A stretch of DNA of 64,000 nucleotides from Bacteroidota bacterium (lineage in GTDB: Bacteria; Bacteroidota; Rhodothermia; Rhodothermales; UBA10348): assembly GCA_029262855.1 (NCBI GenBank), contig JAJCYP010000076.1, positions 4,784-68,783 on the forward strand, in the 5' to 3' direction. Shown here in pieces: positions 5,353 through 60,385 of this stretch (within the stretch, counting starts at the first letter, position 1; each line of letters begins with the position of its first letter). A model generated the notes under the pieces. The model was not told where the DNA came from. It saw nothing but the letters and a program-made list of their open reading frames with translations, and made no database searches. The position numbers and the translations under genes are program-made.

Positions 5353-6680
5353 TGTCTCAGAAGCTGATCTACGTCGTCGATGACGAGGAAATCATTCGCC
5401 TGACATTGGCGGATGACCTGGCGGACGCGGGTTTCGAGGTTGAGGCGTTTACTGGTGCACGCGACTGCATGGCAGCGGCAACCGCTCGTCGGCCCGACGC
5501 AGTCGTGAGCGACGTCCGTATGCCGGGCATCGACGGCATGGCCCTGCTCAGGCGATTGAAGGAGTTGCATCCGGAGACCTGCGTTATTCTAATGACCGCA
5601 TTCGGTACCGTCGACACTGCCGTTGAGGCGATGAAGGCGGGAGCATTCGATTACGTCACCAAGCCCTTCGACCTCGACGAGCTCCTGATCCTCTTGTCCC
5701 GCGCCTTTGAGTTAGTCGGCAGCCGAAAGGAAATCCGTAGCCTCCGAGACCGATTGGGCGAGAATCATTCGCCAGAGTCCTACCTGGGCTCCAGCAAGAC
5801 GGCGGCGGAGACACGACGTCTTCTGCAGGAAGTGGCGGTCACCGAGGCGACCGTCCTCCTTGTTGGTGAAACCGGAACCGGCAAAGAACTGGCCGCCGGC
5901 GTCATTCATCACAGAAGCGGGCGTGCCTCCTCGCCCTTCATTCGAGTGAGTTGCGCCGTGCTTTCCAGGGAGGTATTCGAAAGCGAGCTGTTCGGCCACG
6001 TCAAGGGGGCATTCACCGGTGCCGAAAGGTCCCGCGGAGGACGATTTCAGGCAGGGAACGGGGGAAGCGTGCTGCTGGATGATATCGATGACATTCCACT
6101 CGACCTTCAGGTCAAACTACTTAGGGTACTTCAGGAACGAGAGGTAGAACCCGTCGGGGCGAGCCATCCTGTGCCGATAGACGTCCGAGTGATTGCCGCT
6201 ACGAAGAAGGACCTCGGCGAACTGGTCCGCCAGGGAAGTTTTCGGGAGGACCTGTACTACCGACTCAACGTGCTCCCGGTGGTTCTGCCTCCCTTGAGGG
6301 AGCGCCCGGAAGACATCCCTGACCTGGTTTTTCACTTCGCACGACAGATGGGTTGCCGGGCGGACGCGTTCTCCGAACAAGCGATCGCACGCCTCTGCTC
6401 GCACGACTGGCCGGGCAACGTGAGGGAACTGCGCAATGCGGTCGAGAGGATGGTGCTACTATCTGGAGGCCGCTGTATAGATATCGACAGGGTCCCCAGC
6501 GAAATCTCCACCTCGACCGGCGCGGAACCCCGATCTCTTGAAGCGCGGGTGGCGGCATTTGAGCGTGGGCTCATCGAGCAGGCGCTCGATCGATCAGGAG
6601 GGAATCGCGCAGAGGCGGCTCGTTTCCTCCAAATTCCTGCTTCCACACTAAGGAGCAAGCTGGGCAAGCACGAGCTGTAG
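5352..6680 (+). CDS. sigma-54-dependent response regulator (NtrC family: REC + AAA+ + Fis-type HTH); AioR/ArxR-like
   Basis: Receiver domain (VVDDEEIIRL...DVRMPGIDG). Walker A GETGTGKE, the GAFTGA sigma-54 contact motif, and a C-terminal HTH. The ATG overlaps the kinase TGA. Confidence 0.85.
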   Translation: MSQKLIYVVDDEEIIRLTLADDLADAGFEVEAFTGARDCMAAATARRPDAVVSDVRMPGIDGMALLRRLKELHPETCVILMTAFGTVDTAVEAMKAGAFDYVTKPFDLDELLILLSRAFELVGSRKEIRSLRDRLGENHSPESYLGSSKTAAETRRLLQEVAVTEATVLLVGETGTGKELAAGVIHHRSGRASSPFIRVSCAVLSREVFESELFGHVKGAFTGAERSRGGRFQAGNGGSVLLDDIDDIPLDLQVKLLRVLQEREVEPVGASHPVPIDVRVIAATKKDLGELVRQGSFREDLYYRLNVLPVVLPPLRERPEDIPDLVFHFARQMGCRADAFSEQAIARLCSHDWPGNVRELRNAVERMVLLSGGRCIDIDRVPSEISTSTGAEPRSLEARVAAFERGLIEQALDRSGGNRAEAARFLQIPASTLRSKLGKHEL

Positions 6681-6860
6681 GATGCGCGAGGATTCGCGGT
6701 TACCCTCCAAATATCGCGCCCTTCCTCTTTGCCGAACCGACCTGCGAGATGGAGCTAAGTCGTGCAAACACATGCCCATGATGAGGTTACGTGAATAGCC
6801 TGGCCCCGATCGGTACGCGATTCGTTTGCGGGGCCAGTCCGAGTCATCTCTGCCGTCCTC

Positions 6861-7853
6861 ATGACACAATCGAAGCCCTCGCTCCAGGACCGTTTCGGAC
6901 GGAGGCACACGTACCTTCGCCTTGCGGTTACCGAGCGTTGCAACCTCCGATGCCAATATTGCATGCCGGAGGAGGGATCCCCCAAGCGCTCCACGAACGC
7001 CTACCTGTCCGATCACGAGATCCTGACGGCGGTCGCGGCACTTGCGAGGACCGGGGTTGACCGCGTACGGCTCACGGGGGGTGAGCCGCTGGTTCGAAAG
7101 AACGTTCTGACCCTCGCCAGGCAACTCCGCGCCTGTGAGGGCATTGAGTCGGTTCGGTTGACGTCGAACGGCCTGCTACTCGGTCGGCACCTGCCGGAAC
7201 TGTTAGAGTCCGGAATCGACACGGTCAACGTCAGTCTCGATACGCTTCGTCCGAAGCGCTTCGAGCATATCACCGGTGGCACGGGTCACTCCACGATCCT
7301 GAGAGCAATCGACGACCTGATCGCAACCGGTGTCGTTCGGACAAAAATCAACGTCGTGTTAATGGCCGGAGTGAATGATGACGAGGTCGAGGACCTCGTC
7401 GCGTTCGTCCAGGATCGTCCGGTCGACATACGGTTCATTGAATTCATGCCCTTCGTTCAGAACGGCTGGAGCAAGGATCGGTACGTAGCTGAGCACATCA
7501 TCGTTGAGCGGCTTCGGCGGCGGTTCTCACTGAAGGTGGCGCCCACCGCAAAGAACGACACAGCCGTGATGTACCGAATTGCCGGCCATAGCGGCCGCAT
7601 CGGGTTCATCTCATCTGTTTCCAGCCCGTTCTGTCGAAACTGCAATCGACTACGGATTTCGGCGACCGGCCAATTCAGATCCTGCCTGTTTGGTGCGCCT
7701 AGCCTGGACCTGCGGAGTTTGCTCCGAGGTGGTGGGGATGAGAACGTGATTACTTCGGCCGTGCGCGGCGCCCTGCTTGGCAAGCACTGGGCTCACGATG
7801 GAAGACGGTCCTCGTCCGAAGCGGGTGCCCCGATGATCGCGATTGGCGGCTAA
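6861..7853 (+). CDS. moaA: GTP 3',8-cyclase MoaA (radical SAM, molybdenum cofactor biosynthesis)
   Basis: N-terminal CNLRCQYC radical-SAM motif and TGGEPL. MoaA family length (330 aa). Confidence 0.85.
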   Translation: MTQSKPSLQDRFGRRHTYLRLAVTERCNLRCQYCMPEEGSPKRSTNAYLSDHEILTAVAALARTGVDRVRLTGGEPLVRKNVLTLARQLRACEGIESVRLTSNGLLLGRHLPELLESGIDTVNVSLDTLRPKRFEHITGGTGHSTILRAIDDLIATGVVRTKINVVLMAGVNDDEVEDLVAFVQDRPVDIRFIEFMPFVQNGWSKDRYVAEHIIVERLRRRFSLKVAPTAKNDTAVMYRIAGHSGRIGFISSVSSPFCRNCNRLRISATGQFRSCLFGAPSLDLRSLLRGGGDENVITSAVRGALLGKHWAHDGRRSSSEAGAPMIAIGG

Positions 7854-52066: not shown

Positions 52067-52918
52067 TCAGAGACCAAAGAAATCGAACAGGAACGTTCGA
52101 TTGTCCGGTGACTCGGTGTACCAAGCATGAACCCCATCGGTCATCTGATAGAGATGCACGCGTGTGCCCGAGTCGCACTGATTCCATTCGATGGCCGCGA
52201 GCGTCGCTTTGCCGGACCGGTAGGTAGTCTGCACCGCGGGTTCGCAGGAACGCTTGTCGGCCCAGAATTCGGCGGTGTCTTCGGCCGACAGCAGGCTGAA
52301 CGCCCCGTTGTTCGTCCCGGCCCACGGAAGAATGGCGTCCCGCCTGCCGTGCAGCGTCAATACGGAGACCGGGTTGGCGGCCCCGCACATCTGCGAAAGA
52401 GGTACCGACATGGGCGCCGAGACAGCCGCAACCCGGCTGATCCGATCACCCATGGCGCAGGCAAGCCGATACGCGAATAGTCCGCCCTGCGAGTAACCGA
52501 GTGCAAAGGTGCGTTCCGGTGACACGCTATAGCGGGCGGACACCGAGTCGATGAGCGCCTCTACGAATCCGAGGTCATTGATCTGGAGGCGGTCGGCGAT
52601 GTTGCAGTTGCATCCCTCGGCCCAATTGCCCTTTGCCGCCGTCGGATAGGCGATGATCAGGTCATCCGTAGCCCGTTCGTCGAGCCCCGCACCTGCCTGA
52701 AAGCTCCGCCCGGAATCGCCCGAACCGTGGAGCGCGATGAGCAAATGGACCGCATCGCCTTCCGCAATGCCGTCCGGGATGTAGAGGCGGACATCCCTGA
52801 GTGTGTCATCTACCGCGATGAAGATGTCCTCGGTTGAGCCTGCGTCACCTGAAACGAGATCACAGGCCGCTGTGGCGAGCATGCAGGTCAACAAGAGTGG
52901 GATGGATAGCACCTTCAT
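52067..52918 (-). CDS. PHB-depolymerase-family esterase (alpha/beta hydrolase) lipoprotein
   Basis: Lipobox LATAAC. Nucleophile elbow GYSQGG. HG oxyanion hole LIALHGSG. Confidence 0.7.
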   Translation of the reverse strand: MKVLSIPLLLTCMLATAACDLVSGDAGSTEDIFIAVDDTLRDVRLYIPDGIAEGDAVHLLIALHGSGDSGRSFQAGAGLDERATDDLIIAYPTAAKGNWAEGCNCNIADRLQINDLGFVEALIDSVSARYSVSPERTFALGYSQGGLFAYRLACAMGDRISRVAAVSAPMSVPLSQMCGAANPVSVLTLHGRRDAILPWAGTNNGAFSLLSAEDTAEFWADKRSCEPAVQTTYRSGKATLAAIEWNQCDSGTRVHLYQMTDGVHAWYTESPDNRTFLFDFFGL

Positions 52919-53002: not shown

Positions 53003-53494
53003 TTACGCAGCCTCTTTGGTTCGACCTCCGTCCAGCTTACGCACAGGTCTGGGTACAAACTCTGCCGGAATGCGAGGGCGTTCGCACAGCTTGCCTTCCT
53101 TGTCGACTGCCGCCCAGATGGTGGGAAGCGCGTAGATGTAGCGCCCAATGCCCCACTGGACCGCGGCTCTTCGCATGGCCGCACTCAGCCCTCCTTTCAC
53201 AGGCTGAATGTCCGTGTTCTCGGCTCCGTCCCACTTGGTTATCCATTCCGCGGGCGCTCCGTCCCGCAGAACGCGAACCGACAGGCCACACACCACGCCG
53301 CCGGCGGGTCCGGGCGCGTACTCATTTCGCCAGTTTTCTGGTCCGCATACCTGATCCAGTCGGTCCATGATAGCTCGATTGGACAGGAACGGAGCCGCCC
53401 TGGCCTTGCTCCGATCGGCGGAGAGCCCGATCGGCTTCCATTTCAGGTCGGCTTCTTCGAAGAAATCGGCGAGTCGGCGCAAATCGTAGGACAT
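53003..53494 (-). CDS. Rad52/Rad22-family single-strand annealing protein (phage Sak-like)
   Basis: Conserved stretch AIMDRLDQVCGPENW...AMRRAAVQWGIGRYIY characteristic of bacterial Rad52-family proteins. Confidence 0.55.
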   Translation of the reverse strand: MSYDLRRLADFFEEADLKWKPIGLSADRSKARAAPFLSNRAIMDRLDQVCGPENWRNEYAPGPAGGVVCGLSVRVLRDGAPAEWITKWDGAENTDIQPVKGGLSAAMRRAAVQWGIGRYIYALPTIWAAVDKEGKLCERPRIPAEFVPRPVRKLDGGRTKEAA

Positions 53495-53658: not shown

Positions 53659-54279
53659 ATGGACTCCGTCTATTTCATCAGCCTGATCGTAGGTGGATTC
53701 TTCGTCCTCCTGTCAATCTTCGGCGGCGCAGATCACGAAGGTGACTTTGACGCGGATGTGGATGTGGATGTGGACGTCGATTTCGATGCAGACCACGATT
53801 TTTCCGTCGAAGGCGATCTGGGTGTGGGCGCCCATGCCGGATTCGATTCGGACGTAGGGGCGGGCGTCGGGTTTGTGGACCTGCTTTCGGTCCGCGCCCT
53901 GTTTCTTTTCGCCGCGTTCTTCGGACTGACAGGCACACTCCTTGAACTGAACGGCACCGCCGAGCCCTTTGTCGCGATTCAAGCCGTGCTGATGGGGCTG
54001 TTTGCCGGGCTCGGGGGTAACTATGTGATCAAGCGGTTTGCCTACAAGGAGGTCTCCTCCTCGATCGGTGAGCGGGATTACAAGGGTCGGACCGCCAAGG
54101 TTGTGCTCCCGTTTGAAGGAGACGACCGCGGCACCATTACCCTGAATGTCAAAGGACAGCGGCTGCAGCTGACGGCCCGGTCGCTGGATCTGGAAAGCCT
54201 GGAAGCCTTCGCCCCAGGAGACGAAGTCGTCGTTATCCGCATGGACGGACGCGTCGCAGAAGTGGTCAAGCCCAATTAG
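53659..54279 (+). CDS. YqiJ/NfeD-like membrane protein with an acidic (D-V/D-F)n repeat and a C-terminal OB-fold
   Basis: TM, then DFDADVDVDVDVDFDADHDF (encoded by a GATGTG-type tandem repeat), a second TM, and an NfeD-like C-terminal beta domain. TATAAT lies about 36 nt upstream. Confidence 0.55.
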   Translation: MDSVYFISLIVGGFFVLLSIFGGADHEGDFDADVDVDVDVDFDADHDFSVEGDLGVGAHAGFDSDVGAGVGFVDLLSVRALFLFAAFFGLTGTLLELNGTAEPFVAIQAVLMGLFAGLGGNYVIKRFAYKEVSSSIGERDYKGRTAKVVLPFEGDDRGTITLNVKGQRLQLTARSLDLESLEAFAPGDEVVVIRMDGRVAEVVKPN

Positions 54280-54344: not shown

Positions 54345-54986
54345 TCAATGTCCGGCGTGCGGATTGACACGCTTGGCCAAGACGCCATTGTTCCAATGCG
54401 TCTCCATGGACATAGAACCTTCCGCGCCGTACTGCAACCACGTTCCGGTCCGTTTGCCCTCATCAAAGTGGGTCTCCCACTTGACCGACCCGTCCGGATA
54501 GTACCACGTGGTCGGACCGTGTCGGGTGCCTTGTTTGTAGGAAGTCACGAGATGCACGTTGCCGTGGTGGTCGTAGACTTTCTCCTCCCCGTGTAGCTGA
54601 TTTGCCTTCCACGGTCGCTCCGCACGCAGGGTACCCTTGGCATCCCACATTCGAGCTGGCCCCTCCCGTATGCCTTCGGCGTAGAACGTCTCACTCTCTT
54701 TGCGGCCGTTCACGTGCCAGCCTACCATGTGCAGCGGTGCGCCATCGACGTACAATACTTCCCGCTGTTTGGCGCCGGACGCGGAGTAGAACGCCCATTT
54801 TCCTGAGCGCCTTCCGTCCTCCAGTTCACCCTCCAGGCCATCTCCGACGACGAGGCCGGAGTAGGGTTGCTGTGCCGATGCGGCGTAATACACGCCGTCG
54901 CGTTGCTCCAGATCATCCAGACTGACCTGCGCCAGCGCCGGGGTGGCACAGATGAGTGCCACCCACACCAAGCTTGCGTACTTCAT
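54345..54986 (-). CDS. MORN-repeat (YwqK-like) exported protein
   Basis: Signal peptide MKYASLVWVALICATPALAQ. Repeated G..W..Y..G motifs. Confidence 0.6.
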   Translation of the reverse strand: MKYASLVWVALICATPALAQVSLDDLEQRDGVYYAASAQQPYSGLVVGDGLEGELEDGRRSGKWAFYSASGAKQREVLYVDGAPLHMVGWHVNGRKESETFYAEGIREGPARMWDAKGTLRAERPWKANQLHGEEKVYDHHGNVHLVTSYKQGTRHGPTTWYYPDGSVKWETHFDEGKRTGTWLQYGAEGSMSMETHWNNGVLAKRVNPHAGH

Positions 54987-55546
54987 GATCGGTCGGTCTT
55001 GGTTTCTGAACTCGCGCGCTCGATAAGACTGGCCCACTGCGCCAACTCCATGGGATCCCAAACCGGAGACATGGACTCCTTGGCCACGGCTGGGTCCACG
55101 CCCTCGACCATGGTCCGGTACAGGTAGGTGAAGGCGGAAGCGCGCATGTTTGCGAAGCAGTGGACAAACACCTTTCGGTCCTTGTTCATCTCCATGACCT
55201 CGTAGAACATCTTGAGATCCCGCATCGAAGGCTCAGACCAGGAAACAGGAATGTGCACGTACGTCAGGCCGGCCTGCGTAACCAGAAAACCCTCCAATGA
55301 ATTGGCGGTCTCCGAAGCGGTGGCCAGATTCACGACGACGTCGTACCCCGCCGTGGCAAGCGATTCGATCTGGTCGTACGAAATCTGACCCGCGGTAGCG
55401 AGTTGATTCGAGATCTTGACGTAGTTGTGGATGGTTGCCAGGTCTTCGTCGGCCGCCTGACCTCGGACGGGCGCCACCAGAATGGCCGCAAACAGGGATA
55501 GCGTTAGGATGCGTGACATGGATTTAATCAGGTGTTGGAAGTCCAT
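54983..55546 (-). CDS. DUF442/TIGR01244-type CX5R phosphatase-fold protein (exported)
   Basis: VHCFANMRAS matches the HCX5R(S/T) PTP-loop signature. Signal-like N-terminus. Confidence 0.55.
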   Translation of the reverse strand: MDFQHLIKSMSRILTLSLFAAILVAPVRGQAADEDLATIHNYVKISNQLATAGQISYDQIESLATAGYDVVVNLATASETANSLEGFLVTQAGLTYVHIPVSWSEPSMRDLKMFYEVMEMNKDRKVFVHCFANMRASAFTYLYRTMVEGVDPAVAKESMSPVWDPMELAQWASLIERASSETKTDRS

Positions 55547-56777
55547 CCGCCAGAATCGACTTCATCACGGTGACGAAGCGATCCAGCTCAGGAAGGGTGG
55601 TATAAATACCGGGCGATACGCGAATGCCAGACACGTTGACCTGGCGAATCGGTCTGACCCGTATGCGATAGCGATCCCAAAGGTGGTTTCTCAGGGCCAG
55701 GGGATCCATTTCTGCGACCTCAACAGTGGCCAGCGCGCCCGCACTACCGGTCTCAGTCAAGAGGAGCACCCTGGCCTCCCCGGACAGCCCGTCCAGCCAG
55801 TAGTCTCTCAGATAGCACAGCCTGTCGAACTTCTCCTGGCTCCCGATGCCCTCATGAAACCTGAGGGCCTCGGCCAGAGCCAGGAACGGCGCAGACGCCC
55901 TCGTGCCGGCGTCCTCAAACTTTCGAATGTCGCTCTCCATTCCCGCGCGGGCCGGCATCAGGGGCCAGACTTTAGGGATGTGCTCGCGTTTCACGTAGAG
56001 AAGGCCGGTCCCTTCCGGGCCCATGATCCACTTGTGCAAACTCGTTGCGTAGAAGTCACACTTCAGATCCCCGACGCTGAAGGGCAAGTGACCGAACGTC
56101 TGCGCCCCGTCCACCAGGACCGGGACTCCATGAGTGTGGGCTATCCGCACGATTTCGCGAATCGGAAGGACCTGACCGGTCAGATCGACCATGTGACAGC
56201 ACATCACCAGCCGCGTGCGGGGCGTTATCGCCTGTTCGATAGACCGAACCAAATCCTCGGGATCCATCAGCGGGACGCCCACTGGTACCGAGCGAATGAC
56301 GATCCCGTCACGGGCGCTGCGTTGTGTCCAGGTCTGCATCATCCGGGGATAGTCATGATCGGTTGTTACGATCTCGTCGCCGGCCTCCATGGGAATCCCG
56401 AGTTGGCAGATTTCCATGCCCTCGGACGTATTTCGAGTCAGGGCCAGTTCCTCCGACTCACACCCGAGCAGATTGGCCAGACCGCTTCGCACCGACTCGA
56501 TTTGCGCTGCCACCTCCCCTTGATGCGCATAGAACGGGCGTCGATTCGACGCCGCCTGATGGGCGCTCAGCGCGTCCATGACACTCTTGGGCGCTGGGCA
56601 AACTCCGCCATTGTTCAAGTGGGTCAAGCTTCGGTCCACCGCGAACGCCTGCTGGACCGCGTACCACTCGTCAGTCTGATGGGCCAGCAGGGGCGCGGCC
56701 ATCGCGAGTCGCGCGGCCGGCAACGTGGCCAGCGAAGCGCCACCGGCGGTTCTGAGAAATCGTCTTCGCGTGATCAT
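55524..56777 (-). CDS. class V aminotransferase-fold PLP enzyme with twin-arginine signal peptide
   Basis: MITRRRFLRTAGGASLATLPAARLAMA TAT leader. PLP-lysine context SLHKW. Cysteine desulfurase / isopenicillin-N epimerase-like fold. Confidence 0.7.
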   Translation of the reverse strand: MITRRRFLRTAGGASLATLPAARLAMAAPLLAHQTDEWYAVQQAFAVDRSLTHLNNGGVCPAPKSVMDALSAHQAASNRRPFYAHQGEVAAQIESVRSGLANLLGCESEELALTRNTSEGMEICQLGIPMEAGDEIVTTDHDYPRMMQTWTQRSARDGIVIRSVPVGVPLMDPEDLVRSIEQAITPRTRLVMCCHMVDLTGQVLPIREIVRIAHTHGVPVLVDGAQTFGHLPFSVGDLKCDFYATSLHKWIMGPEGTGLLYVKREHIPKVWPLMPARAGMESDIRKFEDAGTRASAPFLALAEALRFHEGIGSQEKFDRLCYLRDYWLDGLSGEARVLLLTETGSAGALATVEVAEMDPLALRNHLWDRYRIRVRPIRQVNVSGIRVSPGIYTTLPELDRFVTVMKSILADGLPTPD

Positions 56778-56841
56778 GAGTCCCTCCTCGTTGAGAGAGC
56801 CTACGGGACCTGCTGGCGAGCGGCCATCCCGTTGGGACGGA

Positions 56842-57981
56842 CTACTCGGAGCGGGGACGAGTGGGCTCTATCAGGGGCGAAGTGCGGAGCGGCAAGTCCA
56901 GATGCACGGCGAGTCCCCCGGAATCGGACGATCGAAGGTCGAGCCGATAGTCGGTCCCATAGAGCCGGTCGAGCCGATCAACCAGGTTGGACAGGCCGAC
57001 GCCGGCGGTAAGTGGATCCGAATCGTTCGACAAGCCGGGTCCGTCATCGGAAACCTCGAGGCGCAGCCTGTCCACAGCGCGCGCGCGAATCCCGATGCGA
57101 CCCTTGCTGCCCTGCGGCACGACGGCGTGCTTGATGGAATTCTCGACCAGGGGCTGGAAAACGAAGGTTGGGACCAGGAGCTCTCCGAGTTCGGGTGGCA
57201 CATCGATGGAGAGTTCGAGCGCCTCGTCGAATCGCATGCGCTCGATCTCCAGGTACTCGGCCAGGAATTCCATTTCCTCGCGCAGGGTCACCTCGTGATC
57301 GTTGCTCTTGTCGAGCGCCCGTCTGAGCAGCCTGCTCAGACGATTGATCATGTCGTCGGCCTTTTTGGGCTCTCGGTACATGAGCGCTGAAATTCCGTTC
57401 AGCGTGTTGAACAGGAAGTGGGGATGCAACTGCATGCGCAGGACATCGAGTCGGGCCGTCGCCAACTCGGTCTCAAGCCGGGCGGCACCGAGCGCCTTCT
57501 CGTGGTCACGGAGGTAGGCCTTGACCGCGTGAGCCGCCCCGACAATCGCCCAGTAGATGAAAAAATTCAGGTACAGACTGCTCAGGACATGGAATTCCAG
57601 GGCGTCGTAGAAACCATTGTGGGGACTGTTGTATCCGGGGAGAAACATGATTCCCACCTGATAGAGATCATGAATGGCCATCACCAGGAACGCCCCAAGC
57701 ACGTACCCGAGCGTCCTGACCGCGCGATGCTGGGCCACGATCGGCTTTTGCCAGGCAAACTCGAACACCACGGGCGTCAGAAGCACCCAACCAGACCACC
57801 ATAAAGCGGGCCATTCCATGACGGCCCAGAAATTTGCCTCCTCGTTGAGCCGCATGGAATAGCGCGCGTAATTCTGGGTAGCCGTACCCAGCACGATGAG
57901 CAGACAGAGGCCAGCCGCCGTCCCCGTGACAATCAGCAGGCGTCTCCGGGTTTCCCGATCCAGTTCGAACGCTCCTTCCAT
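56842..57981 (-). CDS. LytS/YehU-family sensor histidine kinase (5TM + His_kinase + HATPase)
   Basis: LHPHFLFNTLNGISALM H-box of the LytS family. Start set at the ATG at 57981 (MEGAFELDRE), which is the first ATG downstream of the regulator gene stop at 58056 (no overlap). Confidence 0.7.
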   Translation of the reverse strand: MEGAFELDRETRRRLLIVTGTAAGLCLLIVLGTATQNYARYSMRLNEEANFWAVMEWPALWWSGWVLLTPVVFEFAWQKPIVAQHRAVRTLGYVLGAFLVMAIHDLYQVGIMFLPGYNSPHNGFYDALEFHVLSSLYLNFFIYWAIVGAAHAVKAYLRDHEKALGAARLETELATARLDVLRMQLHPHFLFNTLNGISALMYREPKKADDMINRLSRLLRRALDKSNDHEVTLREEMEFLAEYLEIERMRFDEALELSIDVPPELGELLVPTFVFQPLVENSIKHAVVPQGSKGRIGIRARAVDRLRLEVSDDGPGLSNDSDPLTAGVGLSNLVDRLDRLYGTDYRLDLRSSDSGGLAVHLDLPLRTSPLIEPTRPRSE

Positions 57982-58055
57982 GATTGGCAGTATACCGCGC
58001 GCTCCCTGCGGCCGGGGGGATTGTGTGACGGATGGCAAATGGGTGGGACGAGTGT

Positions 58056-58808
58056 CTACTCCTCGAATCGTTTCAATGCGCTCCGGTACCCGCGGCTGAG
58101 CCTGAGCTCCGTGCCGTCCAGCAGACGAACCTGGTAGTCTCCCTTGAAGGTGGCTCTTAGATCTCTGATCCGCTCGATGTTGACGATGGTTGATCGATGG
58201 ATCCGCAGGAACTGCTCCGGATTCAGTCTCTCCTCGAGCCCGGACATCGTCTGCCGGGTGAGGTGCTCCTTCTTGCCCGCGTGCAGCGTCAGGTAGTTGC
58301 CGGAGGCCTCGATCCAGTCGATGTCCTCCACCCGCACGAACTCCATGCTCTGGTGCCCCTTGACCATCAGTCTTGAGGGGTACTCCTTGGCGGCAGTCAT
58401 TTGTGCCAGGGCAGCTTCCATTCGGCGAGTCAGGTCTCCACGGTCCCCAGCCAGCGCAATCACCCGATCCAAACACCGATTGAACCGCTGCTCATCGAAC
58501 GGCTTCAGCAGGTAATCCAGCGCGTTTACCTCGAAGGCACGCAGCGCGTACTCATCGTACGCCGTGACGAAGACTACCGGAGGCATCGCCTCCGCCCCAA
58601 TCGCCTCGACCACCTGAAAGCCGGTCTTGAAGGGCATCTGGATATCCAGAAATACAAGGTCGAACGTCTGCGCCGAGAGCAGCCGCACGGCCTCGCCTCC
58701 ATCGGACGCCTCCGCCTTCAGGGTGACATCCGTCCGGCCCTCAAGCGCATTGCGGAGACGCTCGCGGCCCAGGGGTTCGTCATCGGCGATCAGTACGTTG
58801 AGGCCCAT
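58056..58808 (-). CDS. LytR/AlgR-family response regulator (REC + LytTR DNA-binding domain)
   Basis: MGLNVLIADDEP...DIQMP receiver domain. C-terminal LytTR (IEASGNYLTLH...RIHRSTIVN). Confidence 0.8.
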   Translation of the reverse strand: MGLNVLIADDEPLGRERLRNALEGRTDVTLKAEASDGGEAVRLLSAQTFDLVFLDIQMPFKTGFQVVEAIGAEAMPPVVFVTAYDEYALRAFEVNALDYLLKPFDEQRFNRCLDRVIALAGDRGDLTRRMEAALAQMTAAKEYPSRLMVKGHQSMEFVRVEDIDWIEASGNYLTLHAGKKEHLTRQTMSGLEERLNPEQFLRIHRSTIVNIERIRDLRATFKGDYQVRLLDGTELRLSRGYRSALKRFEE

Positions 58809-59119
58809 GTGGAATTCGCGACAGGCTGTGTAAGAATCAGAGTGGCAAGGTGCACCTTTTTCGGGAGAATCCCGTCTTCGTTGCGAGACCATACCTCAGG
58901 CCTCCTATGCGCCTGGCTTCCCCACTGAACTTCGGCCTAGTGGTCTCGTTCACCTGACCCCCGGAAGACCATGCGAGCCCTCCCTGCTCTTCTTCTCCTC
59001 GTTATCCCTCAAAGCAGCGGGCGCTCCGTGGAGGCCTGGCCGCTCCCTCAAGTAGGTGAACTCCATGATGTCCTAGATTAAATTAACAGCGGCCCGGTCG
59101 CACAGCAGTAGACACAGCC

Positions 59120-60385
59120 ATGGATCCGATCATCATCCCCCTCGTGGCCATTCTGGCCATCCTCGCTGTCCTCGGTATTATCAGGACCAATCTGAAGATC
59201 TGTCAACCCAATGAGGTGCTGATCTTCTCGGGGCGGACACGCCACTTGAGCGACGGCGGAAAGGTGGGGTACCGCGTAATCCGCGGAGGTCGCGGTTTTC
59301 GGGTGCCCATCATCGAAAAGGTGGATCGCCTGTTCCTCAACACGATCCCCCTCGACCTGACCGTCAGCAACGCCTACTCCAAGGGCGGCATCCCCTTGAA
59401 GGTACAGGCCATCGCTAATATCAAGATCTCGTCCCGCGAGCCCGAGTTGGGCAACGCGGTAGAGCGTCTGCTGGGTAAGCCGTTGGACGAGATTCAGCTC
59501 ATTGCCAAAGAAACCCTGGAAGGAAATCTCCGCGGCGTCCTGGCCTCATTGACTCCTGAAGAGGTAAACGAGGATCGACTCAAGTTTGCCAAGGAGCTTC
59601 TGGAAGAGGCCGACAATGATCTTGGCGCCCTGGGTTTGCAGCTGGATACCCTGAAGATCCAGAATGTTGACGATGATCGCGGATACCTGGACGCCATTGG
59701 CCGGCAGAGCACCGCACACATCATTGCCGCAGCCGAGGTGGTGGAAGCCGACCAGCGCGAGCAGGCGAAGTTGGCGGAGGCGAAGGCTGACGAAGCGATT
59801 GTCCAGGCCCAGAACCGGGTGCGCATCATCAGAGCACAGTTGGGTGCCCAGGCCGAGGCTGAAGAGGCCAAGATCAGTGTGGCAGGTGACGTGGCCCGGG
59901 CTCGTGCCGAGCAGGAACTGGCCGAACAGGAGATCCTGCTTGCCCAGAAACGGCAACAGGCTGAGATCGTGGTCAAGTCAGAAGCGGAGCGGGAGGCCAA
60001 GGAGAATGCGGCCAAGGGTAACGCCGCCCGGATCTTCGAGGACGGACAGGCGGAGGTCCGGATTCTCCAGGAGAAGCTGGAGCTCTGGAAGAGCGCCGGC
60101 GCCGATGCGGAACGTCTCTTCCTGATTCAGATGCTCCCCGACATCTTGAAGGAGGTCATCAAGACCGTCGACAATCTCACCATCGATAACCTCACGGTTG
60201 TGGACTCCGGCGGAGCCGGCGCGGGTGTACCTGCGGTGTTCAATCAGATCGCCGGCGCGACCCCCGCTCTGCTCGAGAGCCTGAAGGCGACCACGGGAAT
60301 CGACGTGGCGGGGATGCTTCGCCAGGCATCCGCAAGGCCTGCTGCCGAAATCGAGGTGACGACCGGGGGCGACTCGGCTGGATGA
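59120..60385 (+). CDS. flotillin / SPFH (band 7) family protein (YqiK-like)
   Basis: N-terminal TM, SPFH domain, then a long Ala/Glu-rich coiled-coil (EAKADEAIVQAQ...). Confidence 0.8.
   Translation: MDPIIIPLVAILAILAVLGIIRTNLKICQPNEVLIFSGRTRHLSDGGKVGYRVIRGGRGFRVPIIEKVDRLFLNTIPLDLTVSNAYSKGGIPLKVQAIANIKISSREPELGNAVERLLGKPLDEIQLIAKETLEGNLRGVLASLTPEEVNEDRLKFAKELLEEADNDLGALGLQLDTLKIQNVDDDRGYLDAIGRQSTAHIIAAAEVVEADQREQAKLAEAKADEAIVQAQNRVRIIRAQLGAQAEAEEAKISVAGDVARARAEQELAEQEILLAQKRQQAEIVVKSEAEREAKENAAKGNAARIFEDGQAEVRILQEKLELWKSAGADAERLFLIQMLPDILKEVIKTVDNLTIDNLTVVDSGGAGAGVPAVFNQIAGATPALLESLKATTGIDVAGMLRQASARPAAEIEVTTGGDSAG

Follow-up and report, generated by a model that had tools for sequence, protein, structure and literature searches.

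A conserved five-gene block of Rhodothermales-type bacteria places a Tat-leader PLP enzyme, a PTP-fold protein and a MORN-variant protein behind a LytTR two-component system: a possible periplasmic sulfur-processing module

The window analysed here is a 64,000-nt stretch of DNA from contig JAJCYP010000076.1 of a Bacteroidota bacterium, and the element under study is a gene block on its minus strand, at positions 54345-58808, which encodes a two-component system with a LytTR-type response regulator and three exported proteins, namely a pyridoxal 5'-phosphate (PLP) enzyme with a twin-arginine translocation (Tat) leader, a protein of the protein tyrosine phosphatase (PTP) fold, and a MORN-variant repeat protein. 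Five intact open reading frames (ORFs) lie exactly inside these limits (Table 1). An earlier note, made from the sequence without database searches, had described five tightly spaced genes on one strand, and its gene list and coordinates proved correct; its three exported proteins were also recovered, as one Tat-type and two Sec-type leaders in the sequence. The regulator and kinase genes are separated by 74 nt, the kinase and PLP genes by 64 nt, and the PLP and PTP-fold genes by 4 nt, and the PTP-fold and MORN genes share a 4-nt ATGA start/stop overlap; the last three genes are predicted to be translationally coupled. A longer regulator ORF reaching the upstream ATG at 58892 is unlikely because the alignments of orthologues begin at residues 1-6 of the MGLNVLIADDEP start. 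A scan for sigma-70 promoters and terminators returned nothing between the genes of the block, the scan being uninformative for this lineage. The borders of the block carry no terminal direct or inverted repeats, and a mobile-element insertion was rejected on this ground. A defence system was rejected as well, as PADLOC gave the PLP enzyme generic class V matches only (SspA, DndA) and the other four proteins none.

The comparison of genomic context called for in the earlier note was run, and the five genes recurred, with order and orientation unchanged, in at least nine further Rhodothermales-type genomes or contigs (loci L003/L006, L009, L010, L014, L015, L018, L086, L087, and L088), with PLP proteins 52-67% identical to that of the window. 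The flanks of the block differed in every locus where they were inspected, and included peptidase/sulfatase and MacB/PadR genes, MFS genes, glycosidases, and others. Because the block recurs with differing flanks, the five genes can be regarded as a functional module moving as a unit, and the block is a conserved module of Rhodothermales-type bacteria. Identical PLP proteins were found in NCBI and also in Logan assemblies of two sequencing runs, and the nearest named relatives are Rhodothermales metagenome-assembled genomes (MAGs). PLP homologues of at most 50% identity (Rhodocaloribacter L005, L089, and 80 metagenomic loci) came without the other four genes. One Rhodothermales MAG carried three extra exported-protein genes between the PLP and PTP-fold genes (L010:3974-6891), one of the DJ-1/PfpI family and two encoding PD40 beta-propellers, the second of which was recognized by eye only. 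A tRNA-gene-like stretch (GCCCTCGTAGCTCAGTGGATAGAGCG...) was situated just upstream of the regulator gene in another locus (L086:2660-2740).

The spacers of the ten clusters, that of the window included, contained recurring TTCGTCCC/TTCATCCC words that were first spotted by eye. An unbiased 7-mer enrichment, run on three non-coding zones of these clusters (4.8 kb) with the remainder of the loci as background, ranked TCGTCCC first (13 observed against 0.47 expected, P 6e-15, in 7 loci) and TCATCCC second (10 against 0.36); TTCGTCC and CGTCCCA were also among the top words, and these are overlapping versions of one motif. The copies of the motif occurred exclusively on the coding strand (19, with 1.06 expected), and in 8 of the 10 clusters they formed TTC(G/A)TCCC direct repeats in pairs or triplets, spaced 20-21 nt from start to start. 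Across 172 loci (3.18 Mb, both strands), phased pairs were concentrated in the cluster-bearing loci and in the same zones, with a single exception inside the PLP gene of L018, while the approximately 160 loci lacking the cluster had phased pairs at only 11 places. Single TCRTCCC words were not enriched over the window (29 against 32.7 expected); the specificity lies only in the phased pairs. The pattern ACTCGTCCC-N12-TCCGTC occurred exactly twice in the 64-kb window against an expectation of 0.01, at 58027-58053, at the junction of the regulator stop and the kinase start, and at 56836-56862, upstream of the PLP gene, where a third half-site is placed another 20 nt upstream. These two places correspond to candidate operators A and B in Table 1. 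Phased repeats of the A type were present in the regulator-kinase spacers of L009, L010, L015, L086, and L088, and arrays of the B type immediately before the PLP gene in L003, L010, L018, L086, and L088.

Both candidate operators lie 30 nt upstream of a TAnnCT hexamer, with the same offset of 59 nt from the start of the box, and a GGAGG ribosome-binding site stands between TAGGCT and the PLP ATG at 56777. The sigma-70 consensus scan did not pick up TATACT, and the assignment of both hexamers to promoters is conjecture. As to the separate transcription named in the earlier note as a refuting outcome, more than one promoter may serve the block, but these would have an element in common, and the last three genes have to lie on one transcript. 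A typical LytTR unit consists of 9 bp and a 12-bp spacer; the TTC(G/A)TCCC half-site is not known to us from a LytTR regulator described so far. AgrA, which is itself a LytTR regulator, recognizes direct repeats that are arranged in pairs and immediately precede promoters (PMC4227749), and the candidate arrays resemble its targets in this respect. Because of this AgrA-like layout, the regulator most likely binds the phased repeats, and would thereby autoregulate the kinase gene and activate the PLP-PTP-MORN operon, and control of the three exported proteins by the LytTR system through the repeat arrays appears likely from the sequence data. The control by a LytSR system suggested in the earlier note thus gains in silico backing from conserved direct repeats before the kinase and PLP genes, in a system whose kinase does not have the LytS sensor.

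Table 1. Genes and candidate regulatory features of the five-gene block (positions in the window).
Feature	Position	Strand	Details
Response regulator, REC and LytTR DNA-binding domains	58056-58808	(-)	250 aa, start MGLNVLIADDEP
Candidate operator A, CTCGTCCC-N12-TCCGTCAC, 20 nt start to start	58025-58052	(-)	between regulator stop and kinase start
TATACT, possible -10 hexamer for the kinase gene	57989-57994	(-)	7 nt before ATG; conjectural
Membrane sensor histidine kinase	56842-57981	(-)	379 aa, His_kinase PF06580 and HATPase_c
Candidate operator B, three half-sites TTCGCCCC / CTCGTCCC / TCCGTCCC, 20-nt intervals	56834-56881	(-)	overlaps kinase stop codon, upstream of PLP gene
TAGGCT, possible -10 hexamer for the PLP-PTP-MORN transcript	56798-56803	(-)	conjectural
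Class V (fold-type I) PLP enzyme, Tat leader, PvdN/C-DES-like	55524-56777	(-)	417 aa
Predicted twin-arginine signal peptide, MITRRRFLRTAGGASLATLPAARLAMA/AP	56697-56777	(-)	T-R-R-R-F-L-R motif and AMA-A site
PTP-fold protein, 3GXG ('DUF442-like') family, Sec-type leader	54983-55519	(-)	178 aa
MORN-variant (MORN_2) repeat protein, Sec-type leader	54345-54986	(-)	213 aa

The LytTR regulator named in the earlier note was confirmed by both Pfam domains (Response_reg 2.2e-23, LytTR 2.6e-25), with an acceptor region reading FLDIQMP; its top NCBIfam models scored under their cut-offs (BtsR 167 bits against 246, LytR 150 bits against 375). The kinase matched His_kinase (1.9e-26) together with HATPase_c, and its sequence contains the phospho-acceptor motif HPHFLFN. 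Three clear helices were seen in its hydropathy profile (residues 15-33, 94-112, and 132-150), along with a Trp-rich segment at about residues 50-75, so that its membrane part is predicted to comprise about four transmembrane helices and no extracytoplasmic domain. The Pfam scan detected neither a 5TMR-LYT nor a GAF sensor domain in the kinase, and no LytS or BtsS NCBIfam match was obtained; a true LytS/BtsS sensor kinase was rejected accordingly, and the earlier designation as LytS-type holds for the LytS/YehU-type core and not for the sensor. The system is similar to AgrCA, LytSR, BtsSR, and YpdAB in its REC-LytTR regulator, and to LytS and BtsS in the His_kinase-HATPase_c core of its kinase; it differs from LytTR systems in the missing 5TMR-LYT/GAF domain, in the BtsR and LytR scores that fall short of their cut-offs, and in its presumed targets, which are exported enzymes as opposed to holins, transporters, or peptides.

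The PLP enzyme matched Aminotran_5 (PF00266) with an E-value of 1.7e-45 (156 bits against a cut-off of 21.5), and its leader reads MITRRRFLR...LAMA/AP, in agreement with the S/T-R-R-x-F-L-K motif, moderately hydrophobic h-region and AxA cleavage site of Tat substrates, which supports the earlier assignment of a class V aminotransferase-fold enzyme with a twin-arginine leader. Residues R4, R5, and F7 of the leader and the Schiff-base lysine K249, situated in SLHKW (an S-x-H-K motif), were invariant in 14 homologues of 47-67% identity from Rhodothermales, Longimicrobia, Thermoanaerobaculia, and others. The AlphaFold2 model of the enzyme had a predicted local distance difference test (pLDDT) score of 86, with low values in the leader region, as expected for a signal peptide. 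Export of PLP enzymes through the Tat pathway is experimentally established for PvdN and PtaA (PMC6206403). With this precedent, with more than 3,000 family matches at E<=1e-20 among 8,000 candidates scored, and with RR-x-F kept across several phyla, the remark that a Tat-exported PLP enzyme is uncommon is weakened; judged by sequence, the Tat leader is characteristic of the family and not rare.

When compared to solved structures, the single sequence gave C-DES (1.9e-33) and PvdN (7e-32, aligned from residue 3, leader included) as top matches, the family profile placed PvdN first (6.5e-50), and Foldseek returned PvdN with template modelling (TM) scores of 0.83/0.89 and a root-mean-square deviation of 2.4 A, and C-DES with 0.79/0.86. 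The top NCBIfam model was likewise PvdN (NF051467 equivalog), matched over the full length including the leader at 152.9 bits against a cut-off of 650; the SufS model scored 139 bits against 475, and no curated family claims the protein by the NCBIfam cut-offs. A PvdN orthologue was rejected on this score and on the absence of pvd genes from all the clusters. Opposite the mobile catalytic-Cys loop THCAQPLLKRF of Brucella SufS, which in desulfurases precedes the C-terminal R-x-S motif, the sequence has a 9-residue deletion, and no Cys was found in the desulfurase-loop region of the 14 family members. A NifS/SufS cysteine desulfurase was rejected for this reason, which also disposes of the cysteine desulfurase-like activity considered in the earlier note insofar as this type is concerned. 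Because the desulfurase Cys loop is absent, the enzyme is better regarded as a lyase or tailoring enzyme of the Cys-less PvdN/C-DES branch. Kynureninase was considered for the Cyclase-family neighbours seen in 8 loci and was rejected, those genes being convergent; the 25 best NCBIfam matches listed did not include a model for this enzyme. The family also has an invariant D142-Y143 at the position of the PLP-stacking His and an invariant Cys194-His195 pair.

Concerning the chemistry of the enzyme, a RidA gene was located immediately downstream in 7 of the 80 metagenomic loci of the wider PLP family (8 of which carry RidA). RidA clears enamines and imines released by PLP-dependent eliminations, and lyase chemistry by beta-elimination is favoured on account of these neighbours. 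The RidA genes (Ribonuc_L-PSP) follow Tat-PLP members without PTP-fold, MORN, or two-component genes, with a median gap of 0 nt, and both copies inspected (L130:1460-1912 and L005:7560-8020, the latter from Rhodocaloribacter) had a lipoprotein-type leader; a periplasmic RidA seems noteworthy in itself. A DUF2784 membrane protein gene was found directly upstream of a Tat-PLP family member in 12 loci.

The PTP-fold protein showed clear homology to the PDB entry 3GXG (E 3.3e-27 over residues 29-170; 2.2e-34 with a profile), and its AlphaFold2 model (pLDDT 86) returned 3gxh at rank 1 in Foldseek. Its loop reads VHC-FANM-R-AS, that is C-X4-R, and HCFANMRAS was invariant in 22 homologues; Cys121 is the only cysteine of the mature protein, in the loop H120-C-F-A-N-M-R126-x-S. 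HMMER alignments to the C-X5-R phosphatase TpbA and to a dual-specificity phosphatase (DSP) have a one-residue gap in the loop. The CX5R motif ascribed to this protein in the earlier note was therefore a misreading of a C-X4-R loop, and a classical C-X5-R phosphatase of the PTP/DSP type was rejected. For the accompanying DUF442 label the scores were borderline: PTP-NADK was the top Pfam match (7e-10, 38.9 bits), and BLH_phosphatase/DUF442 (PF04273) scored 26.2 bits against a cut-off of 26.1, at the threshold. The best NCBIfam matches, both under cut-off, were the TIGR01244 sulfurtransferase family (31.8 against 85.85) and Blh (41.6 against 625), and the canonical DUF442 structure 2F46 ranked only 48th in the Foldseek list. 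At residue 93, just behind the conserved HIPV strand, most family members and 3GXG (IPVDW) have Asp or Glu, and the window protein and the majority of the other aligned Rhodothermales sequences have Ser (IPVSW). Should the general acid be located here, the proteins of the clusters may no longer be competent as phosphatases. The MORN protein matched MORN_2 (PF07661) at 2.8e-13 (48.9 bits against a cut-off of 29.6), its mature form has no cysteine, and it is probably a binding or scaffold partner of the PTP-fold protein.

The PTP-fold family is widespread in Gemmatimonadota and Acidobacteriota and is also present in gamma-proteobacteria. A general partnership with the PLP enzyme was rejected, as it was not seen in gamma-proteobacteria, in most Gemmatimonadota and Acidobacteriota, or in the 80 metagenomic PLP loci; the pairing is lineage-specific. 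In two Gemmatimonadota (L062 and L068), a Tat-leader class V enzyme of another clade, only 26-28% identical to the PLP protein of the window, is encoded immediately ahead of the PTP-fold gene, which it overlaps by 4 nt, and because this pairing involves a different clade, recruitment of the PTP-fold protein by periplasmic PLP enzymes has taken place no fewer than two times. In the MAG SP311 (L068:4408-8997; the counterpart in L062 spans 5721-7528), four ORFs form an operon-like row, composed of an aminotransferase that is class I/II-like by eye and has a Tat-type leader (SRRGFMGG), the Tat class V enzyme, the 3GXG-family PTP-fold gene, and an overlapping multi-pass membrane ORF, a row that recalls the PvdN/PtaA pair of periplasmic PLP enzymes. 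Elsewhere (L011:3598-5301), the PTP-fold and MORN gene pair persists without PLP or two-component genes, and there it is situated directly downstream of a bacterial-like globin gene.

Three of the closest known systems concern the PLP enzyme. PvdN, the periplasmic pyoverdine-tailoring PLP enzyme of Pseudomonas (PDB 5I90/5HH9), has the class V fold and the twin-arginine leader, is without the desulfurase Cys loop, and is exported folded and PLP-loaded (PMC6206403). The window enzyme differs from it in an identity of only about 24%, in having no pyoverdine genes nearby, in a Tyr in place of the stacking His, and in its partners, which are PTP-fold and MORN proteins under a LytTR system. C-DES, the cystine C-S lyase of Synechocystis (PDB 1ELQ/1N31), is a Cys-less class V enzyme and the best single-sequence PDB match; unlike the window enzyme it is cytoplasmic and leaderless, and it is about 26% identical, with His114 aligned to Tyr143. 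Its substrate, cystine, would be the form on offer in an oxidising periplasm. The SufS-SufE, CsdA-CsdE, and IscS-IscU operons, in which a class V gene adjoins the gene for its sulfur acceptor, are the basis of a further analogy, as in the block a class V gene is followed by the gene for a small single-Cys protein. In contrast to those systems, the window enzyme has no catalytic Cys loop, the candidate acceptor has a PTP fold and not that of SufE or IscU, and both proteins carry export leaders.

Based on these comparisons, the module might work as follows. The membrane kinase would phosphorylate the REC-LytTR regulator, which would bind the phased TTC(G/A)TCCC repeats upstream of the kinase gene, in autoregulation, and upstream of the PLP gene, activating the translationally coupled three-gene operon for periplasmic proteins. 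The PLP enzyme would fold and load its cofactor in the cytoplasm before Tat export, and in the oxidising periplasm it would split the C-S bond of cystine or another S-substituted amino acid, releasing aminoacrylate, which would yield pyruvate and NH3. The persulfide or thiol product would be passed to Cys121 of the PTP-fold protein, with the MORN protein as binding partner of the latter, an arrangement that would reproduce, outside the cytoplasm, the usual pairing in which a sulfur acceptor adjoins its class V enzyme. A sulfur-accepting partner is favoured by the loop length shared with DUF442, whose Blh representative is a sulfurtransferase, by the top NCBIfam matches to Blh and TIGR01244, although under cut-off, and by the separate coupling to a Tat class V enzyme in L062 and L068. 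As a whole, comprising the regulation, the export, and the C-S lyase with its sulfur acceptor, this is the best explanation we can offer, and it is held tentatively. Its biochemical core, a periplasmic C-S or beta-lyase acting on a cystine-like substrate with a PTP-fold acceptor and a MORN partner, is possible and rather doubtful; the more specific version, a cystine-fed periplasmic sulfur relay from the Cys-less Tat lyase to the C-X4-R carrier, assisted by the MORN protein and governed by a dedicated LytTR/TTC(G/A)TCCC switch, is more doubtful still. The sulfur-processing idea of the earlier note is a plausible hypothesis.

Several observations weigh against the sulfur-relay account. PvdN, ranked first by the profile, is not known to cleave C-S bonds, and the PLP-stacking His of PvdN, C-DES, and SufS is replaced by an invariant Tyr143 in the window family, so that the reaction may differ from that of all three. 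PTP-fold, MORN, and two-component genes were found in none of the 80 metagenomic loci of the PLP family. The PTP-fold family was without a nearby PLP gene in 71 of 80 species-level loci, and the gene is solitary in Shewanella, Marinobacter, and Ferrimonas; because it is solitary in most genomes, the PTP-fold protein is not an obligate partner of the PLP enzyme. After 3gxh, its nearest structural neighbours are genuine phosphatases (Tk-PTP, TpbA, and DUSPs), and the Gly of the DUF442 P-loop is replaced by an invariant Asn124 in its family. NMA1982, the sole stand-alone C-X4-R protein studied biochemically, is a PTP-type phosphatase in vitro, with the loop Gly conserved (PMC10716126). On the regulatory side, the repeat motif had been spotted by eye ahead of the unbiased test, and two of the ten clusters (L014 and L087) have no clear repeat array at the threshold used.

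The comparison of the loops illustrates how closely the readings of the PTP-fold protein compete. NMA1982 and the N-terminal DUF442 domain of Blh share the C-X4-R loop length with the window protein, and the Blh domain is a sulfurtransferase with a rhodanese-like site (PMC5823870); as these two proteins show both outcomes, sequence alone cannot choose between phosphatase and sulfurtransferase. The window loop C-F-A-N-M-R differs from the canonical C-R-T-G-T-R of NMA1982, with its conserved Gly, and agrees with 3GXG/3GXH in HC-x-AN-x-RAS, the gene being solitary in Shewanella in contrast to the block. For 3GXG/3GXH, a structural-genomics entry from Shewanella putrefaciens named 'putative phosphatase (DUF442)', a literature search returned no functional study. 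That the PTP-fold protein of the window is a genuine phosphatase is almost as likely as the C-S lyase with its sulfur acceptor. Under the same regulation, a periplasmic phosphatase would let the module scavenge phospho-amino compounds, for instance phosphoserine, phosphoethanolamine, or phosphotyrosine, the PTP-fold protein releasing the phosphate and the PLP enzyme deaminating or cleaving the amino moiety; we consider this scavenging scheme unlikely. It draws on the active phosphatases, periplasmic TpbA among them, that follow 3gxh in the Foldseek list, on the top match to PTP-NADK, on the invariance of Cys121, Arg126, Glu76, and Asp101, as expected of a P-loop, an E-loop, and a general acid, and on NMA1982, which shows that PTP catalysis is possible with a C-X4-R loop (PMC10716126). 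In most genomes, moreover, the family is stand-alone and exported, and the L068 operon, with its Tat class I/II aminotransferase and overlapping multi-pass membrane ORF, suggests periplasmic nutrient processing. However, the conserved P-loop Gly is an Asn, the Rhodothermales proteins from the clusters have Ser behind the IPV strand where most family members and 3GXG have Asp or Glu, and no known phospho-substrate joins a PTP-fold enzyme to one of the PvdN/C-DES type.

The remaining alternatives concern the PLP enzyme or the grouping itself. That the enzyme carries out a PvdN-like tailoring of a metabolite or peptide, either secreted or periplasmic, at a free alpha-amino acid end, with the other two proteins as accessories, would fit the first place of PvdN by profile (6.5e-50) and structure (TM 0.83/0.89) and the full-length NCBIfam match, leader included; it is nonetheless improbable, given a score of 153 bits far under the cut-off of 650, the absence of non-ribosomal peptide synthetase, siderophore, and PvdM/PvdO genes from the ten clusters with their differing flanks, the Tyr in place of the stacking His, and the RidA neighbours in the wider family, which point to elimination chemistry. 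Several database sources label homologues as isopenicillin-N epimerase, and periplasmic PLP racemases exist, so an amino-acid epimerase or racemase that makes or removes D-amino acids for the cell envelope was also considered; the label is an automatic transfer, and the RidA adjacency and the nearest solved relatives, which are lyases or tailoring enzymes, make this a quite improbable function. Equally slight are the chances that the PTP-fold and MORN proteins serve the kinase as accessory regulators in the periplasm, in the manner of TpbA-TpbB, and are not partners of the PLP enzyme in metabolism: a periplasmic sensor domain is missing from the kinase, the two genes occur together without a PLP gene in L011, and TpbA is a periplasmic signalling phosphatase (PMC4409338), but L011 is also without a nearby two-component system, and most members of the PTP-fold family are without any kinase gene. 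Finally, the 64- and 74-nt gaps leave room for separate promoters, as would suit five neighbours by chance with no shared function; the conservation of the block in ten genomes with unrelated flanks, the same cis element before two of its genes, and the predicted translational coupling of the last three speak against it, and chance clustering is excluded, being contradicted by the conservation data.

The surroundings of the block in the window showed further features. A flotillin/SPFH gene (59120-60385, plus strand; Band_7 6.9e-21, FloT 177 bits) and an NfeD-like gene (53659-54279, plus strand; a weak Pfam match of 21.5 bits, under cut-off) are located on the same strand and are kept apart by the entire minus-strand block. 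NfeD and flotillin genes are usually adjoining partners, and the block may have been inserted between them; relatives carry it at other places. Beyond the NfeD-like gene, a 163-aa ORF (53003-53494, minus strand) matched the Rad52/Rad22 single-strand annealing family (5.5e-12), whose proteins are unusual on a bacterial chromosome and typical of phage-derived recombinases. It is followed by a gene encoding an exported alpha/beta hydrolase (52067-52918, minus strand), for which the top NCBIfam model was the extracellular short-chain polyhydroxyalkanoate depolymerase catalytic domain type 1 (3.7e-30, 105 bits, under the cut-off of 150).

Each component of the module is of a known kind, and none reaches the curated threshold of a characterised orthologue group. 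The literature search returned no description of the conserved five-gene combination, of Tat-exported PLP enzymes repeatedly coupled with the 3GXG family, or of the TTC(G/A)TCCC phased-repeat element. As the components are familiar under either reading of the PTP-fold protein, the gain is incremental and not conceptual. The module would provide a first functional context for two large uncharacterised exported families, one being the Tat-leader PLP enzymes, which number in the thousands in Rhodothermales, Gemmatimonadota, and Acidobacteriota, and the other the 3GXG PTP-fold family, which is known by structure and not by function. LytTR systems are abundant in the Bacteroidota/Rhodothermota lineage and, to our knowledge, little studied, and the block also supplies a concrete candidate operator for one of their regulators. 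If the phosphatase reading is true, the PTP-fold protein would represent a second type of C-X4-R phosphatase. If the sulfur reading is true, these bacteria would handle persulfide outside the cytoplasm, and a sulfur relay of the kind proposed would be a periplasmic counterpart of SufS-SufE and would give the 3GXG family its first function.

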